NCBI RefSeq assembly: GCF_045037415.1
Contig: NZ_CP173438.1
DNA length: 64,000 bases
Origin: Escherichia coli
GTDB lineage: Bacteria > Pseudomonadota > Gammaproteobacteria > Enterobacterales > Enterobacteriaceae
Direction: 5' to 3' (one strand)
The translations under genes and the position numbers were made by a program. The notes under the pieces were generated by a model, which was not told the origin of the DNA, did no database searches, and saw only the letters and a list, made by a program, of their open reading frames with translations. The number at the start of each line of letters is the position of its first letter. The stretch's first letter is position 1. Shown one piece after another: positions 5,923 through 39,472 of the stretch.

Positions 5923-6342
5923 ATGGCAATGACTTACCACCTGGACGTCGTCAGCGCAGAGCAACAAATGTTCTCTGGTCTGGTCGAGAAAATCCAGGTA
6001 ACGGGTAGCGAAGGTGAACTGGGGATCTACCCTGGCCACGCACCGCTGCTCACCGCCATTAAGCCTGGTATGATTCGCATCGTGAAACAGCACGGTCACG
6101 AAGAGTTTATCTATCTGTCTGGCGGCATTCTTGAAGTGCAGCCTGGCAACGTGACCGTTCTGGCCGACACCGCAATTCGCGGCCAGGATCTCGACGAAGC
6201 GCGAGCCATGGAAGCGAAACGTAAGGCTGAAGAGCACATTAGCAGCTCTCACGGCGACGTAGATTACGCTCAGGCGTCTGCGGAACTGGCCAAAGCGATC
6301 GCGCAGCTGCGCGTTATCGAGTTGACCAAAAAAGCGATGTAA
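5923..6342 (+). CDS. atpC: ATP synthase F1 epsilon subunit (139 aa)
   Basis: 139-aa [22 protein letters not shown]…. Confidence 0.95.
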
Positions 6343-6362
6343 CACCGGCTTGAAAAGCACAA

Positions 6363-6394
6363 AAGCCAGTCTGGCAACAGGCTGGCTTTTTTTT
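6363..6394 (+). terminator. Rho-independent terminator of the atp operon
   Basis: Stem agccag…ctggct followed by a T8 run directly after the atpC stop. Confidence 0.7.
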
Positions 6395-6695
6395 ACGCGT
6401 ATTGACCCGTCCTGAAAAGCGTTCACATAGATCCTGATGATATAAAACACCCCTGTTTTCCCGTTTATTCATTGATCGAAATAAGAGCAAAAACATCCAC
6501 CTGACGCTTAAATGAAGGTACTGCCTTAATTTTCTGCAGACAAAAGGCGTGACGATGGTCGAAAATGGCGCTTTCGTCAGCGGGGATAATCCGTTATTGA
6601 ACAATTTATCCTCTGTCCATTTCACGATGAAAAAAATGTAGTTTTTTCAAGGTGAAGCGGTTTAAATTCGTTCTCAAATTACAGTCAGGACGCGT

Positions 6696-8066
6696 ATGTT
6701 GAATAATGCTATGAGCGTAGTGATCCTTGCCGCAGGCAAAGGCACGCGCATGTATTCCGATCTTCCGAAAGTGCTGCATACCCTTGCCGGGAAAGCGATG
6801 GTTCAGCATGTCATTGATGCTGCGAATGAATTAGGCGCAGCGCACGTTCACCTTGTGTATGGTCACGGCGGCGATCTGCTTAAGCAGGCGCTGAAAGACG
6901 ACAACCTGAACTGGGTGCTTCAGGCAGAACAGCTGGGTACGGGTCATGCGATGCAGCAGGCCGCACCTTTCTTTGCCGATGATGAAGACATTTTAATGCT
7001 CTACGGCGACGTGCCGCTGATCTCTGTCGAAACACTCCAGCGTCTGCGTGATGCTAAACCGCAGGGTGGCATTGGTCTGCTGACGGTAAAACTGGATGAT
7101 CCGACCGGTTATGGACGTATCACCCGTGAAAACGGCAAAGTTACCGGCATTGTTGAACACAAAGATGCCACCGACGAGCAGCGTCAGATTCAGGAGATCA
7201 ACACCGGCATTCTGATTGCCAACGGCGCAGATATGAAACGCTGGCTGGCGAAGCTGACCAACAATAATGCTCAGGGCGAATACTACATCACCGACATTAT
7301 TGCGCTGGCGTATCAGGAAGGACGTGAAATCGTCGCCGTTCATCCGCAACGTTTAAGCGAAGTAGAAGGCGTGAATAACCGCCTGCAACTCTCCCGACTG
7401 GAGCGCGTTTACCAGTCCGAACAGGCTGAAAAACTGCTGTTAGCAGGCGTTATGCTGCGCGATCCGGCGCGTTTTGATCTGCGCGGTACGCTTACTCACG
7501 GGCGCGATGTTGAAATTGATACTAACGTTATCATCGAGGGCAACGTGACTCTCGGTCATCGCGTGAAAATCGGCACCGGTTGCGTGATTAAAAACAGCGT
7601 GATTGGCGATGATTGCGAAATCAGTCCATATACCGTCGTGGAAGATGCGAATCTGGCAGCGGCCTGTACTATTGGCCCGTTTGCCCGTCTGCGTCCTGGT
7701 GCTGAGTTGCTGGAAGGTGCACACGTCGGTAACTTCGTTGAGATGAAAAAAGCGCGTCTGGGTAAAGGCTCGAAAGCTGGTCATCTGACTTACCTGGGCG
7801 ATGCGGAAATTGGCGATAACGTTAACATCGGTGCGGGAACCATTACCTGCAACTACGATGGTGCGAATAAATTTAAGACCATTATCGGCGACGATGTGTT
7901 TGTCGGTTCCGACACTCAACTGGTGGCCCCGGTAACAGTAGGCAAAGGCGCGACCATTGCTGCGGGTACAACTGTGACGCGTAATGTCGGCGAAAATGCC
8001 CTGGCTATCAGCCGTGTGCCGCAGACTCAAAAAGAAGGCTGGCGTCGTCCGATAAAGAAAAAGTAA
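6696..8066 (+). CDS. glmU: Bifunctional GlcNAc-1-P uridyltransferase / GlcN-1-P acetyltransferase (456 aa)
   Basis: 456-aa ORF, N-terminal LAAGKGTRM nucleotidyltransferase motif and C-terminal hexapeptide-repeat region. Confidence 0.95.
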
Positions 8067-8227
8067 TTCTGGTCGGGTAATCCGGTCATATGGGATGAGG
8101 AGATAACATAATCTCCCGCCCACAAGCAGTAACTATAAAAATAACCCCACTCTCTACAAGGCTCGGGGCGCCCGAAAAAACGGGCATACAGGTTGACCGA
8201 CAACGATATAAATCGGAATCAAAAACT

Positions 8228-10057
8228 ATGTGTGGAATTGTTGGCGCGATCGCGCAACGTGATGTAGCAGAAATCCTTCTTGAAGGTTTACGTCGTCTGG
8301 AATATCGCGGATATGACTCTGCCGGCCTGGCCGTGGTGGATGCTGAAGGTCATATGACCCGCCTGCGTCGCCTCGGTAAAGTACAGATGCTGGCTCAGGC
8401 AGCGGAAGAACATCCTCTGCATGGCGGCACCGGTATTGCTCACACTCGCTGGGCGACCCACGGTGAACCTTCAGAAGCTAACGCGCATCCGCATGTTTCT
8501 GAACACATTGTGGTGGTGCATAACGGCATCATCGAAAACCATGAACCGCTGCGTGAAGAGTTAAAAGCGCGTGGCTATACCTTCGTTTCTGAAACCGACA
8601 CCGAAGTGATTGCACATTTGGTGAACTGGGAGCTGAAACAAGGCGGTACTCTGCGTGAGGCAGTTCTGCGTGCTATCCCGCAACTGCGTGGTGCGTACGG
8701 TACAGTGATCATGGACTCCCGTCATCCGGATACCCTGCTGGCGGCACGTTCTGGTAGTCCGCTGGTGATTGGCCTGGGTATGGGCGAAAACTTTATCGCT
8801 TCTGACCAGCTGGCGCTGTTGCCAGTGACTCGTCGTTTTATCTTCCTTGAAGAGGGCGATATTGCGGAAATCACTCGCCGTTCGGTAAACATCTTCGATA
8901 AAACTGGCGCGGAAGTAAAACGTCAGGATATCGAATCCAATCTGCAATATGACGCGGGCGATAAAGGTATTTACCGCCACTACATGCAGAAAGAGATCTA
9001 CGAACAGCCGAACGCGATCAAAAACACCCTTACCGGGCGCATCAGCCACGGTCAGGTTGATTTAAGCGAGCTGGGACCGAACGCCGATGAACTGCTGTCG
9101 AAGGTTGAGCATATTCAGATCCTCGCCTGTGGTACTTCTTATAACTCCGGTATGGTTTCCCGCTACTGGTTTGAATCGCTGGCAGGTATTCCGTGCGACG
9201 TCGAAATCGCCTCTGAATTCCGCTATCGCAAATCTGCCGTGCGTCGTAACAGCCTGATGATCACCTTGTCACAGTCTGGCGAAACCGCGGATACCCTGGC
9301 GGGCCTGCGTCTTTCGAAAGAGCTGGGTTACCTTGGTTCGCTGGCAATCTGTAACGTTCCGGGTTCTTCTCTGGTGCGCGAATCCGATCTGGCGCTGATG
9401 ACCAACGCCGGTACGGAAATTGGCGTGGCCTCCACCAAAGCATTCACCACCCAGTTAACTGTGCTGTTGATGCTGGTGGCGAAACTGTCTCGCCTGAAAG
9501 GTCTGGATGCCTCCATTGAACATGACATCGTGCATGGTCTGCAGGCGCTGCCGAGCCGTATTGAGCAGATGCTGTCTCAGGACAAACGCATTGAAGCGCT
9601 GGCAGAAGATTTCTCTGACAAACATCACGCGCTGTTCCTGGGCCGTGGCGATCAGTACCCAATCGCGCTGGAAGGTGCATTGAAGCTGAAAGAGATCTCT
9701 TACATTCACGCTGAAGCCTACGCTGCAGGCGAACTGAAACACGGTCCGCTGGCGCTGATTGATGCCGATATGCCGGTTATCGTCGTTGCACCGAACAACG
9801 AATTGCTGGAAAAACTGAAATCCAACATTGAAGAAGTTCGCGCGCGTGGCGGTCAGTTGTATGTCTTCGCCGATCAGGATGCGGGTTTTGTGAGCAGTGA
9901 CAACATGCACATCATTGAGATGCCGCATGTGGAAGAGGTGATTGCACCGATCTTCTACACCGTTCCGCTGCAACTACTGGCTTACCACGTTGCGCTGATC
10001 AAAGGCACCGACGTTGACCAGCCGCGTAACCTGGCGAAATCGGTTACGGTTGAGTAA
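8228..10057 (+). CDS. glmS: Glutamine--fructose-6-phosphate aminotransferase (609 aa)
   Basis: 609-aa ORF beginning MCGIVGA (N-terminal Cys nucleophile), SIS domains, C-terminal …AKSVTVE. Confidence 0.97.
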
Positions 10058-10092
10058 TAAATGGATGCCCTGCGTAAGCAGGGCATTTTTCT
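10020..10092 (+). other. attTn7 target region (glmS 3' end and downstream terminator), unoccupied
   Basis: Established location of the Tn7 attachment site at the glmS 3' end; the ~313-bp glmS-pstS spacer here has no inserted DNA. Confidence 0.6.
10064..10092 (+). terminator. glmS Rho-independent terminator
   Basis: Hairpin atgccctgc-gtaa-gcagggcat followed by ttttt. Confidence 0.7.
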
Positions 10093-10264
10093 TCCTGTTA
10101 TGTTTTTAATCAAATATCCTGCCAACTCCATGTGACAAACCGTCATCTTCGGCTACTTTTTCTCTGACACAGAATGAAAATTTTTCTGTCATCTCTTCGT
10201 TATTAATATTTGTAATTAACTGAATATCAACGCTTATTTAAATCAGACTAAAGACTTTCTCTCT

Positions 10265-10304
10265 CTGTCATAAAACTGTCATAAACCTTACATATAACTG
10301 TCAC
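10265..10304 (+). promoter_or_regulatory. PhoB-binding Pho boxes of the pstS promoter
   Basis: Tandem ctgtcataaaactgtcat and cttacatataactgtcac ~70-105 bp upstream of the pstS ATG. Confidence 0.8.
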
Positions 10305-10352
10305 CTGTTTGTCCTATTTTGCTTCTCGTAGCCAACAAACAATGCTTTATGA

Positions 10353-11411
<1,059 letters not shown>

Positions 11412-31653: not shown

Positions 31654-33069
31654 TTAAACTTCTTTCAGTTTTGCGGTGAAGTGACGCAATACTTTCGGTT
31701 CGTAGGTAAAGGTTAACCCTTTAATATTCGCCGCGTTCTCTTTCACATGTTTAAAGGCTTCAATAATGAAGTCCATATGTGTTTGAGTATATGTTGCGCG
31801 CGGAATGGTTAAACGCAGCAGTTCAGCCGGGCATGGCAGTTGTTTACCGGTTTTCGGATCGCGGCCTAACAGGAAAGAGCCAATTTCTACCGCACGGATA
31901 CCGGCGACTTTATACAGCTCGCAGGCCAGCGCCTGTGCCGGGAACTGATCTGCCGGGATATGCGGCAACAGTTTACCTGCATCAACGAATGCCGCGTGAC
32001 CGCCCGCCTGCTGACAGACAACGCCAATCTCTTCCAGACCATCGACCAGATACTGCACCTGCGCGATACGATAAGCCAGCCAGTCCAGATTCATGCCGTC
32101 ATACAGACCTACCGCCAGACGCTCCATAGCGCCGCCTTCCAGGCCGCCATATGTCGGGAAGCCTTCCTGCACCACGCAAAGGGTTCTGCATTCGGTATAC
32201 ACATCAAAGAAGCTGTTGTCTTTCATGCACAGCAGGCCGCCCATCGGCACCATCGCATCTTTCTTGGCGGACATCGCCAGCATATCGGCATATTTGTAGG
32301 TTTCGCGGGTGATCTGCTCGATGGTCCAGTCTTTGTATTCTGCTTCACGCTGCTTGATGAAATAGGCGTTTTCGGCAAAGCGTGCGGAGTCCATGACCAC
32401 CGGAATATCGTATTTCTTCGCGATGCTGTACATCGCTTTTAAGTTTGCCAGTGAAACCGGCTGACCACCTGCGGAGTTACTGGTGATGGTTGCAACAATA
32501 TACGGCACGTTATTCGGGCCAACTTCTTCAATACCGCGTTCTAATCCCTCAAGGTCAAAGTTGCCTTTAAAGTCGTAACGCACGCCAGTATCGAAGGCTT
32601 CTTTGATATAGACGTTACGCACGGTACAGCCGTTAATCTGGCTATGGCCCTGCGTGGTATCAAAGAAATAGTTAGAGAACGCCACCATTTTGCTGCGATC
32701 CAGGCCTTTTTCCTGCTCGCGTTTTTTAATCAGTACCGGAATATAGATTTGCTCTGCACCACGGCCCTGGTGAGTCGGAATAGTGTATTGATAACCAAAG
32801 ATATTTTTCACTGACTCGGCTAACGCGTAGTAGCTGCGGCTGCCGCTGTAGGCTTCGTCGCCACGCATCATCGCGGCCTGCATACTCTGCGTCACCGCCC
32901 CGGTGCCGCTGTCGGTCAGTAAATCGATAAACACATCTTCGCTATCCAGCAGGAACGGGTTCATACCGGATTTAATAATTGCCTCTTCACGATAAGCGCG
33001 AGTGGTACGTTTTACTGGCTCAATAACACGAATGCGGAACGGTTCAGGGAGATGTTTAAAGTTTTCCAT
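31654..33069 (-). CDS. tnaA: Tryptophanase (471 aa)
   Basis: ORF 31654..33084; start at [15 protein letters not shown] gives 471 aa. Confidence 0.95.
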
Positions 33070-33289
33070 TACATAATCCTTCATTTATTTTAATTACAGT
33101 GATCCCTGTGAATATTACATTTGCAATATCCATTAATTCGCCAGATATATATGCAAGCACCATCATTTACTAAAACAAGTAAATAAACGAGAGATGGCCT
33201 TTGTAAAAGGCAAAATTAAGATATAGCAAACTAATCGATCACATTGAATCTAATCGGTTTGGCTCTGGTGATGGCTACAGAAGGGCAAA

Positions 33290-38068: not shown

Positions 38069-39472
38069 GTGTCACTTTCGCTTTGGCAGCAGTGTCTTGC
38101 CCGATTGCAGGATGAGTTACCAGCCACAGAATTCAGTATGTGGATACGCCCATTGCAGGCGGAACTGAGCGATAACACGCTGGCCCTGTACGCGCCAAAC
38201 CGTTTTGTCCTCGATTGGGTACGGGACAAGTACCTTAATAATATCAATGGACTGCTAACCAGTTTCTGCGGAGCGGATGCCCCACAGCTGCGTTTTGAAG
38301 TCGGCACCAAACCGGTGACGCAAACGCCACAAGCGGCAGTGACGAGCAACGTCGCGGCCCCTGCACAGGTGGCGCAAACGCAGCCGCAACGTGCTGCGCC
38401 TTCTACGCGCTCGGGTTGGGATAACGTCCCGGCTCCGGCAGAACCGACCTATCGTTCTAACGTAAACGTCAAACACACGTTTGATAACTTCGTTGAAGGT
38501 AAATCTAACCAACTGGCGCGCGCGGCGGCTCGCCAGGTGGCAGATAACCCTGGCGGTGCTTATAACCCGTTGTTCCTTTATGGCGGCACGGGTTTGGGTA
38601 AAACTCACCTGCTGCATGCGGTGGGTAACGGCATTATGGCGCGCAAGCCGAATGCCAAAGTGGTTTATATGCACTCCGAGCGCTTTGTTCAGGACATGGT
38701 TAAAGCCCTGCAAAACAACGCGATCGAAGAGTTTAAACGCTACTACCGTTCCGTAGATGCACTGCTGATCGACGATATTCAGTTTTTTGCTAATAAAGAA
38801 CGATCTCAGGAAGAGTTTTTCCACACCTTCAACGCCCTGCTGGAAGGTAATCAACAGATCATTCTCACCTCCGATCGCTATCCGAAAGAGATCAACGGCG
38901 TTGAGGATCGTTTGAAATCCCGCTTCGGCTGGGGACTGACTGTGGCGATCGAACCGCCAGAGCTGGAAACCCGCGTGGCGATCCTGATGAAAAAGGCCGA
39001 CGAAAACGACATTCGTTTGCCGGGCGAAGTGGCGTTCTTTATCGCCAAGCGTCTACGATCTAACGTACGTGAGTTGGAAGGCGCGCTGAACCGCGTCATT
39101 GCCAACGCCAACTTTACCGGACGGGCGATCACCATCGACTTCGTGCGTGAGGCGCTGCGCGACTTGCTGGCATTGCAGGAAAAACTGGTCACCATCGACA
39201 ATATTCAGAAGACGGTGGCGGAGTACTACAAGATCAAAGTCGCGGATCTCCTTTCCAAGCGTCGATCCCGCTCGGTGGCCCGTCCGCGCCAGATGGCGAT
39301 GGCGCTGGCGAAAGAGCTGACTAACCACAGTCTGCCGGAGATTGGCGATGCCTTTGGTGGTCGTGACCACACGACGGTGCTTCATGCCTGCCGGAAGATC
39401 GAGCAGTTGCGTGAAGAGAGCCACGATATCAAAGAAGATTTTTCTAATTTAATCAGAACATTGTCATCGTAA
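38069..39472 (+). CDS. dnaA: Chromosomal replication initiator DnaA (467 aa), GTG start
   Basis: ORF 38057..39472; GTG at 38069 gives (M)[16 protein letters not shown]…; Walker [11 protein letters not shown]. Confidence 0.96.

Follow-up and report, generated by a model that had tools for sequence, protein, structure and literature searches.

The question raised by this locus was whether the spacer between glmU and glmS of Escherichia coli is a regulated mRNA leader, and by what means it would act. The product of GlmS, glucosamine-6-phosphate, is the first committed precursor of peptidoglycan and LPS. The window analysed was a 64,000-nucleotide stretch of an E. coli chromosome, with the gene order atpD, atpC, glmU, glmS, pstS on the + strand. 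GlmU and GlmS were identified with NCBIfam equivalog models, and the annotation of both genes agreed in a 100%-identical RefSeq E. coli genome. Positions 8000-8300 matched 5424 of 5426 complete E. coli genomes and were 100% identical to several RefSeq chromosomes. A preliminary description had given the spacer as 161 bp, and the ORF list, protein models and RefSeq annotation agreed on exactly 161 nt (8067-8227). It had also placed the spacer before the glmS ribosome-binding region, which is where it lies, with the GGA core in its last nucleotides and the AUG directly downstream.

In E. coli K-12 the glmS 5' UTR is regulated by GlmZ, GlmY, RapZ and Hfq (Kalamorz 2007; Urban and Vogel 2008; Reichenbach 2008; Salim 2012; Gopel 2014 review). 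With high confidence, the spacer studied here is likewise the 5' leader of the E. coli glmS mRNA and a GlmZ-dependent translational switch. The case was built on a precise match to results already published and on the conservation of the leader across 80 species of Enterobacteriaceae. Coordinates of all features are collected in Table 1. The functional unit slightly exceeds 8067-8227: the putative RNase E site spans the glmU stop codon, and the 3' arm of the predicted hairpin reaches position 8233 in glmS.

Table 1. Elements of the glmU-glmS spacer and its flanking genes, in window coordinates
Feature	Position	Strand	Basis
glmU CDS	6696-8066	+	ORF list; NCBIfam NF006986, 941 bits; RefSeq annotation; K-12 alignment
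Putative RNase E site context, AAAAAGUAA↓UUCU	8058-8070	+	homology to K-12 primer-extension mapping, AAAAAGUGA↓UUCU (PMC1885654)
Hairpin A, 7 bp, loop GUAAU	8070-8088	+	MFE and ensemble folds
Hairpin B, GGGAUGAGGAGAU-AACAUA-AUCUCCCGCCC	8091-8122	+	folds; cross-species alignment
First (ARN)3 motif, AGCAGUAAC, candidate Hfq distal-face site	8125-8133	+	motif match
Second (ARN)3 motif, AAAAAUAAC, candidate Hfq site	8137-8145	+	motif match
Invariant block / hairpin C, CCCC-ACUCUCUACAAGGCUC-GGGG, 4 GC pairs, 16-nt loop	8145-8168	+	alignment
Hairpin D, GCCCG-AAAAAA-CGGGC, A-rich loop	8170-8185	+	named-structure count
Inhibitory hairpin, imperfect	8186-8233	+	pair probabilities from ensemble folds; predicted
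GlmZ half-site 1, ACAGGUU	8188-8194	+	pairs GlmZ nt 163-169; duplex search; PMC2267818
GlmZ half-site 2, GACAACGA	8199-8206	+	pairs GlmZ nt 150-157; duplex search; PMC2267818
Shine-Dalgarno region UCGGAA (core GGA, 8215-8217), 10 nt before AUG	8213-8218	+	sequence
glmS CDS	8228-10057	+	ORF list; TIGR01135, 899 bits; RefSeq annotation

The leader was compared with that of K-12 MG1655, which occupies the same locus, has the same length of 161 nt and is identical at 156 of 161 bases. The five spacer substitutions (8073, 8077, 8081, 8089 and 8118) all fall in the 5' third, and 8119-8227 are identical. Identity extends to the GlmZ site, the inhibitory hairpin, the Shine-Dalgarno sequence, both (ARN)3 motifs, hairpin C and hairpin D, and no difference touches a base implicated in regulation. 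In hairpin A, U8073 replaces the C of K-12, giving a U-G pair in place of C-G. The stop codon of glmU, the first cistron of the glmUS operon, is TAA at 8064-8066 (UGA in the K-12 mRNA, a difference at 8065); TAA was the commonest glmU stop codon among 80 other species. The differences at 8089 and in the stop codon coincide with the mapped minor and major 5' ends of K-12, respectively. Within the species, the 3' 117 nt (8111-8227) were found at ≥99% identity in 5146 of 5425 E. coli records. In the divergent E. coli FEX669, variation was confined to positions beside the invariant block and to hairpin D, where a C-to-U change gives a wobble pair and the loop carries a deletion.

The preliminary description had named GlmZ as the activator that pairs in the spacer. 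GlmZ was absent from the 64-kb window in an Rfam search of the whole window, and its sequence was taken from another E. coli genome as a 207-nt query, which was verified (Rfam GlmZ_SraJ, RF00083, 218 bits; located between aslA and hemY). The 207-nt sequence was present at ≥99% identity in 5424 of 5426 complete E. coli genomes, and from this near-universal presence the strain very probably carries glmZ in its genome. All of GlmZ was searched against 8067-8257 using windowed duplexes, with the opening energies of both partners added. This procedure was preferred to predicting the duplex of the two full-length RNAs without restriction, which gave a meaningless 160-nt 'duplex'.

The complementarity that had been expected was found: the best interaction joined the two half-sites of Table 1, at -40 to -34 and -29 to -22 relative to the AUG, with a hybridisation energy of -19.2 kcal/mol, an opening cost of +10.5 and a net energy of -8.7 kcal/mol. 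The same GlmZ residues, 150-157 and 163-169, were predicted to pair with glmS by Urban and Vogel (PMC2267818), and a review places the GlmZ site at -41 to -19 (PMC4152352). In K-12 the pairing was proven by compensatory mutants, glmS G-36C/C-27G with GlmZ C165G/G155C, and activation of glmS by GlmZ was shown in vivo and in vitro (PMC2267818). The mutated glmS residues correspond to G8192 (G-36), which faces GlmZ C165, and to C8201 (C-27), which faces G155. The predicted duplex is an exact match to the published one.

Taken alone, the complementarity is weak evidence and lies within the range of chance. An energy of -19.2 kcal/mol was reached by 50 of 500 dinucleotide-shuffled spacers and by 17 of 1000 shuffled initiation regions, and stronger hybridisation with this GlmZ segment was seen at 12 or more sites elsewhere in the window. 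Because of these statistics, complementarity was not used as the main argument. An 18-bp complementarity of tnaA to GlmZ was set aside as a probable chance match, several window sites being comparable and no paper linking the two.

ACAGGU was present in 73 of 81 leaders and CGACAAC in 76 of 81, and E. coli GlmZ hybridised at the homologous site of the 81 leaders with -22.3 +/- 1.9 kcal/mol, compared with -14.6 +/- 3.6 for shuffled leaders. Both half-sites drift in the outgroups: ACAGGU becomes UCAGGU in Erwiniaceae and Pectobacteriaceae, and GACAAC becomes GACAUC in Pectobacteriaceae.

Structure around the ribosome-binding site (RBS) was predicted in the context of the processed mRNA, from 8067 to +36 or +75. 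In the predicted inhibitory hairpin the GlmZ site forms the 5' arm (8186-8207), and the 3' arm (8212-8233) takes in the Shine-Dalgarno AUCG together with the start codon and codon 2. Four sub-helices were resolved (8186-8190/8229-8233, 8191-8194/8224-8227, 8199-8200/8219-8220 and 8204-8207/8212-8215), with A8228 bulged. The core, CGAU/AUCG with the loop AUAA (8204-8207/8212-8215), had a pairing probability of about 0.8, and the AUG-proximal bases 8229-8233 paired with 8186-8190 at 0.6-0.8. The isolated hairpin had an energy of -11.3 kcal/mol (z = -2.21), and equally good folds were obtained in 6 of 200 shuffles. Sequestration of the Shine-Dalgarno sequence within 8150-8240, which had been raised earlier, held in part: an imperfect hairpin was seen, but this segment was not unusually stable (z = -1.16). 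Unpaired probabilities were 0.06, 0.03 and 0.04 at 8213-8215 and 0.91, 0.99 and 0.96 at 8216-8218; because two bases of the core, G8216 and A8217, were largely free in the model, the Shine-Dalgarno sequence is predicted to be only partly masked. The start codon is predicted to be masked as well.

The effect of occupying the leader was modelled by forcing successive 20-nt windows single-stranded and computing the energy needed to open the RBS (-18 to +12). Blocking the GlmZ site in silico reduced the opening cost of 9.8 kcal/mol by 3.57 kcal/mol. Other 20-nt windows gained at most 1.93 kcal/mol, with a mean elsewhere of 0.41. The largest modelled gain in RBS accessibility thus falls at the GlmZ site, which is the prediction of an anti-antisense mechanism. 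Over 78 leaders, the GlmZ site gave the greatest gain in 36 and coincides with the peak of the mean profile; for some clades (Enterobacter type) no gain was predicted from blocking it. The proposal that the glmS leader is a site of post-transcriptional control by GlmZ was supported, both a predicted inhibitory structure and GlmZ complementarity having been found.

The following sequence of events is proposed for the strain, which would be expected from its sequence to behave as K-12 does. Promoters upstream of glmU would drive co-transcription of glmU and glmS, and an RNase E cut at the glmU stop (8066/8067) would release a monocistronic glmS mRNA that begins with the leader. Nucleotides 8186-8207 would then fold back on 8212-8233, masking part of the Shine-Dalgarno region and the AUG, and with the hairpin closed translation would be low and the mRNA unstable. 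When glucosamine-6-phosphate is scarce, full-length GlmZ would accumulate. Hfq would bind the A-rich (ARN)3 motifs (8125-8145), and GlmZ 150-157 and 163-169 would pair with 8199-8206 and 8188-8194. Since the target bases are the 5' arm of the hairpin, this pairing would open it, free the RBS, and activate and stabilise glmS ('anti-antisense').

A scan for GlmS in species-representative genomes yielded 80 Enterobacteriaceae loci from about 35 genera. Outgroup leaders (Erwinia, Pantoea, Pectobacterium, Dickeya) were retrieved via GlmS proteins, independently of the leader sequence. In all 80 species loci glmU lies directly upstream of glmS, with a spacer of 154-372 nt. The 5' part varies, frequently with REP-like palindromes. 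The 3' part forms the conserved core: (ARN) motif, CCCCACUCUCUACAAGGCUCGGGG, hairpin D, ACAGGU, spacer, GACAAC, a small hairpin F, Shine-Dalgarno, ATGTGTGGAATTGTT. Other Enterobacterales (Salmonella, Klebsiella, Enterobacter, Erwinia, Pectobacterium and others) share with the window the synteny, the (ARN) motif, the block, hairpin D, the bipartite GlmZ site and an identical start region; in many genera REP-like sequence is inserted in the 5' part, or other sequence separates the block from the GlmZ site. RNAalifold on a MAFFT alignment recovered hairpin C only, because indels shift hairpins D and F out of register, and named structures were therefore counted and hairpins listed for each sequence.

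Hairpin F, which lies between the GlmZ site and the Shine-Dalgarno sequence (for example GCAUGGC-AUAAC-GCCAU or GCAUGGCAUAACGCCAUA), was found in all non-Escherichia genera sampled, outgroups included. Its stems covary (AUGGC/GCCAU, AGGC/GCCU, AUGACC/GGUCAU, GUGACA/UGUCAC), and it was 82% paired in the 63-sequence alignment despite register problems. About 14 nt are missing at this position in the window, in an Escherichia sp. (L004) and in E. albertii (L005). The remnant is CGAU-AUAA-AUCG in the window and CGAU-AUCA-AUCG in the other two, with a 3' arm that overlaps the Shine-Dalgarno sequence. This loss suggests that the E. coli hairpin is a derived, compact version. Of the species sampled, only some 40% had the helix that masks the Shine-Dalgarno sequence, CCGA/UCGG, and three Atlantibacter-type leaders carried a compensatory CUGA/UCAG. 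UC-GGA accompanied the spacer type UGACC, the source of CCGA, in 24 of 27 leaders, and a spacer of another type in 16 of 54 (Fisher p = 3e-7, phylogeny uncorrected). For many other species masking of the start codon was predicted, by ACGCAUGG with CUAUGUGU and by AGCGA with UUGUU.

These comparisons bear on a different account of what GlmZ relieves. GlmZ might act mainly against sequestration of the start codon and early coding sequence, or through mRNA decay or Rho termination, the Shine-Dalgarno hairpin being a lineage-specific addition. Most non-Escherichia leaders are without pairing of the Shine-Dalgarno sequence to the GlmZ-site arm, and in E. coli itself 8229-8233 pair with half-site 1 at the probability given above while G8216 and A8217 are mostly free. 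A long-range helix from just 3' of half-site 2 to the AUG and codons 4-5 retained 90% standard pairs in 63 species (slid controls, 24-52%). Synonymous sites in glmS codons 2-6 (8231-8245; UGU GGA AUU GUU GGC) were nearly frozen, with a codon entropy of 0-0.28 compared with a mean of 0.99 over 168 degenerate conserved glmS codons, and codons 1-4 formed the only low-entropy run among the first 200. Pairing of 8229-8233 with half-site 1 may account for part of this conservation. However, changes in the helix were one-sided only, without true covariation, because its 3' arm is coding; the outgroups are without the CAU-containing 5' arm; and the account draws on thermodynamic predictions on fragments. 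Published work ascribes activation to unmasking of the Shine-Dalgarno sequence and reports direct translational activation in vitro (PMC2267818). This account is rather unlikely; it would be a refinement of, not a substitute for, the explanation by GlmZ-dependent opening of the RBS hairpin. In an ancestral leader with two hairpins, the start codon and first codons may have been the main masked element.

Hairpin A is species-specific, and other genera have REP-like or other palindromes at the same position. Hairpin B is kept in many genera with compensatory changes (GAGGGGAU/AUCCCC, GAGAGGAU/AUCCUC, GAGGAAAU/AUUUCC). Both are named in a review as elements that RNase E might recognise (PMC4152352). 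The spacer contains two matches to (ARN)3 and no others, and the second is kept as AUAAAAAUAAC in most species. Two (ARN)3 motifs were described in the glmS leader by Salim et al., of which (ARN)3-2 is essential for regulation by GlmZ (PMC3439879; PMC4152352). The published motifs probably correspond to those of Table 1, the second presumably being the essential (ARN)3-2. Hairpin D was paired in 89% of alignment cells, with changes on both sides in three of its five pairs (63-sequence alignment); it was missing in three Kosakonia loci, and in 17 loci inserted sequence fills the stretch from the block to the GlmZ site.

Directly 3' of the second (ARN)3 motif lies a 24-nt block that was identical in 62 of 63 aligned sequences; hairpin C, which it forms, showed zero variation in the named-structure count. 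Among all 81 leaders, 78 had the block with at most three substitutions and the other three had a 1-nt insertion; its position relative to the AUG ranged from -59 to -199. The four outgroups (Erwinia, Pantoea, Pectobacterium, Dickeya) kept it with 0-2 changes, while both GlmZ half-sites drift. Its conservation spans three families of Enterobacterales (Enterobacteriaceae, Erwiniaceae and Pectobacteriaceae) and is at least equal to that of the GlmZ site. In E. coli genomes the block is single-copy (about 3,913,730-3,913,753 in K-12), and it is untouched by E. coli variants. A metagenome scan with the 16-nt loop returned 80 loci, of which 43 were chance matches in unrelated contexts; the 37 glmS-linked loci were used as a query-biased sample.

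No assigned role was found for the block, and a literature search with its sequence gave nothing relevant. Neither block nor spacer matched an Rfam family at the gathering score or at an E-value of 10 (5 kb, whole window and 201 nt). Pairing of its loop UCUACA (8153-8158) with UGUGGA of codons 2-3 (8231-8236) was unsupported: it was the MFE structure only in the truncated fragment 8150-8240, and its probability was ~0 in 81 leaders with more context. Pairing of CGACAA with UUGUUG of codons 4-6 was likewise unsupported (mean probability 0.04-0.05). The block resembles boxA (CACUCUCUACAA vs GCUCUUUAACAA), a speculative likeness; no link of boxA or NusB to glmS was found in a literature search. 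The invariant hairpin could be a platform for positioning Hfq, or a site for another protein or the ribosome. Jointly, these observations allow a tentative reading, possible although we would not favour it, in which the textbook picture of the leader is incomplete: the invariant hairpin would be an unrecognised module of the switch, and the Shine-Dalgarno-masking stem of E. coli would be an Escherichia-specific derivative of a two-hairpin ancestor, arising through the loss of hairpin F.

Independent transcription of glmS was weighed against processing of a glmUS transcript. In K-12 the major 5' end lies just past the stop codon, at AAAAAGUGA↓UUCU, and was ascribed to RNase E (PMC1885654; PMC2377431); two promoters are located upstream of glmU, and none was identified in the spacer (PMC1885654; PMC2377431). 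In Salmonella the RNase E site at the glmU stop was captured by TIER-seq (PMC5222698). By homology, cleavage would take place between 8066 and 8067, which would make 8067 the 5' end of the monocistronic glmS mRNA. A glmS-specific promoter in the spacer, by which 5' ends in the spacer would be transcription starts and glmS would be expressed independently of glmU, was considered. Joanny et al. observed that monocistronic glmS RNA remains after inactivation of RNase E and raised a promoter near the spacer as one possibility (PMC1885654), and the A/T-rich UAUAAAAAUAA (8134-8144) lies upstream of the invariant block. Against this, the same paper reports that no promoter had been identified in the spacer, and the major 5' end at the stop codon has an AU-rich, RNase E-type context and is RNase E-dependent in Salmonella (PMC5222698). 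Positions 6300-10400 were scanned for sigma-70-type consensus promoters only (-35/-10 hexamers with 16-18 nt spacing). The spacer, earlier described as having no obvious promoter-like pair, held no such pair at the scan threshold and is not a sigma-70 promoter region by this measure; the single promoter-like site lay at 6678-6707, upstream of glmU, and no terminator-like site was found in 8067-8227 in the same scan. A glmS promoter in the spacer is accordingly very improbable, and processing by RNase E is preferred.

That the leader is instead a GlcN6P riboswitch or ribozyme, with the invariant block in its ligand pocket, is a negligible prospect and has largely been refuted already: it would concern the same gene and the same need for GlcN6P feedback as the Gram-positive glmS ribozyme, and a 24-nt block invariant across three families has a conservation typical of ligand-binding RNAs, but there was no match to the glmS ribozyme or any other Rfam model even at an E-value of 10 on a short stretch, the structured part is small (three short hairpins), and when the entire E. 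coli spacer was subjected to in-line probing, neither Glc6P nor GlcN6P caused a structural change or cleavage (personal communication in PMC1885654).

The GlmZ-dependent leader may be set beside two known systems. The glmS ribozyme of Gram-positive bacteria (RF00234) likewise occupies the leader of the same gene and gives GlcN6P feedback; it acts by metabolite-triggered self-cleavage, in contrast to activation by a trans-acting sRNA here. No sequence or structure match links the two, and its covariance model was unmatched by the leader at the gathering score and at an E-value of 10. The other is the rpoS leader, the prototype of anti-antisense regulation (DsrA, RprA, ArcZ), where an Hfq-dependent sRNA likewise pairs with the 5' arm of an RBS-masking hairpin and an upstream (ARN)x motif is likewise needed for Hfq (PMC3439879; PMC2267818). 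The rpoS leader is unrelated in sequence and much longer. Unlike it, the glmS leader arises from an operon transcript by RNase E processing, and control of its sRNA is exerted through decay (RapZ, GlmY) and not through synthesis.

The finding at the glmS leader is correct and already known, and by every feature that can be tested in silico the locus is a member of the GlmY/GlmZ/RapZ/Hfq circuit. For annotation, the strain carries an intact leader with hardly any difference from the K-12 model. GlmS levels are set by the GlmY/GlmZ/RapZ circuit, which also confers intrinsic resistance to inhibitors of the enzyme (PMC4908143). The invariant hairpin, the loss of hairpin F and the frozen codons 2-6 could guide experiments on the positioning of Hfq and GlmZ on the mRNA, and the comparative findings bear on the transfer of the E. 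coli structure model to Salmonella, Klebsiella and Erwinia.

One element of the glmS leader described here is a 24-nt block, which showed no variation across about 80 Enterobacteriaceae species and was nearly unchanged in the outgroups Erwinia, Pantoea, Pectobacterium and Dickeya. The second (ARN)3 motif (8137-8145), a candidate Hfq-binding site, immediately precedes the block on its 5' side. An assigned function for the block was looked for and none was found. The coordinates of this and other elements are listed in the table.

Features of the glmS leader and of the remaining window
Feature	Position	Strand	Description
24-nt block CCCCACUCUCUACAAGGCUCGGGG	8145-8168		4-bp GC stem, 16-nt loop
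Terminator-like hairpin	10063-10088		bidirectional, 11 bp, just past the glmS stop codon
STnc410	6455-6612	minus	enterobacterial sRNA; full-length Rfam match, 188 bits
AsdA	38579-38659	minus	antisense RNA of dnaA mRNA; Rfam match, 99.7 bits
ROSE_2	54214-54286	plus	heat-shock RNA thermometer; Rfam match, 96.6 bits
GlmZ-complementary stretch	32083-32112	minus	inside tnaA (31654-33084)

Synonymous positions of glmS codons 2-6 (TGT GGA ATT GTT GGC, 8231-8245) were nearly fixed among 81 sequences, and the rare Gly codon GGA was kept in all 81, unlike Gly codons further along glmS, which vary freely. The glmU stop codon (8064-8066), with which the mapped RNase E cleavage site coincides, is TAA in the window and in most other species, and TGA in K-12. 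Tn7 integrates downstream of glmS; the glmS-pstS spacer is 313 nt, the same length as in K-12, and therefore carries no insertion at this site.

Of the Rfam matches, STnc410 falls between atpC and glmU and runs antisense to the promoter region of glmUS. Complementarity to the sRNA GlmZ was also detected within tnaA, where 18 contiguous base pairs (13 consecutive Watson-Crick) were formed with GlmZ nucleotides 151-168 at a predicted -31 kcal/mol, exceeding the real glmS site in strength. This stretch is probably a chance match, because the window contains several sites comparable to it and no publication connecting GlmZ with tnaA regulation was found.

Between the GlmZ site (8188-8194 and 8199-8206) and the Shine-Dalgarno sequence, all other genera sampled (L006-L083, L205-L208) carry a small hairpin, termed F, that spans about 14 nt (AUGGC-AUAAC-GCCAU is one version) and is missing from Escherichia (window, 8204-8215; L004, Escherichia sp.; L005, E. 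albertii). The E. coli mini-hairpin masking the Shine-Dalgarno sequence (8204-8215) looks like a truncated remnant of it. In 17 species an insertion separates the invariant block from the GlmZ site (loci including L007, L009, L013, L018, L019, L022, L028, L037, L041, L047, L081 and L082), giving a distance of 48-148 nt versus about 20 nt normally, and in many species REP-like palindromes are found immediately 3' of the glmU stop codon. Large insertions in the glmS leader are tolerated at two points only, the interval between block and GlmZ site and the position following the glmU stop.
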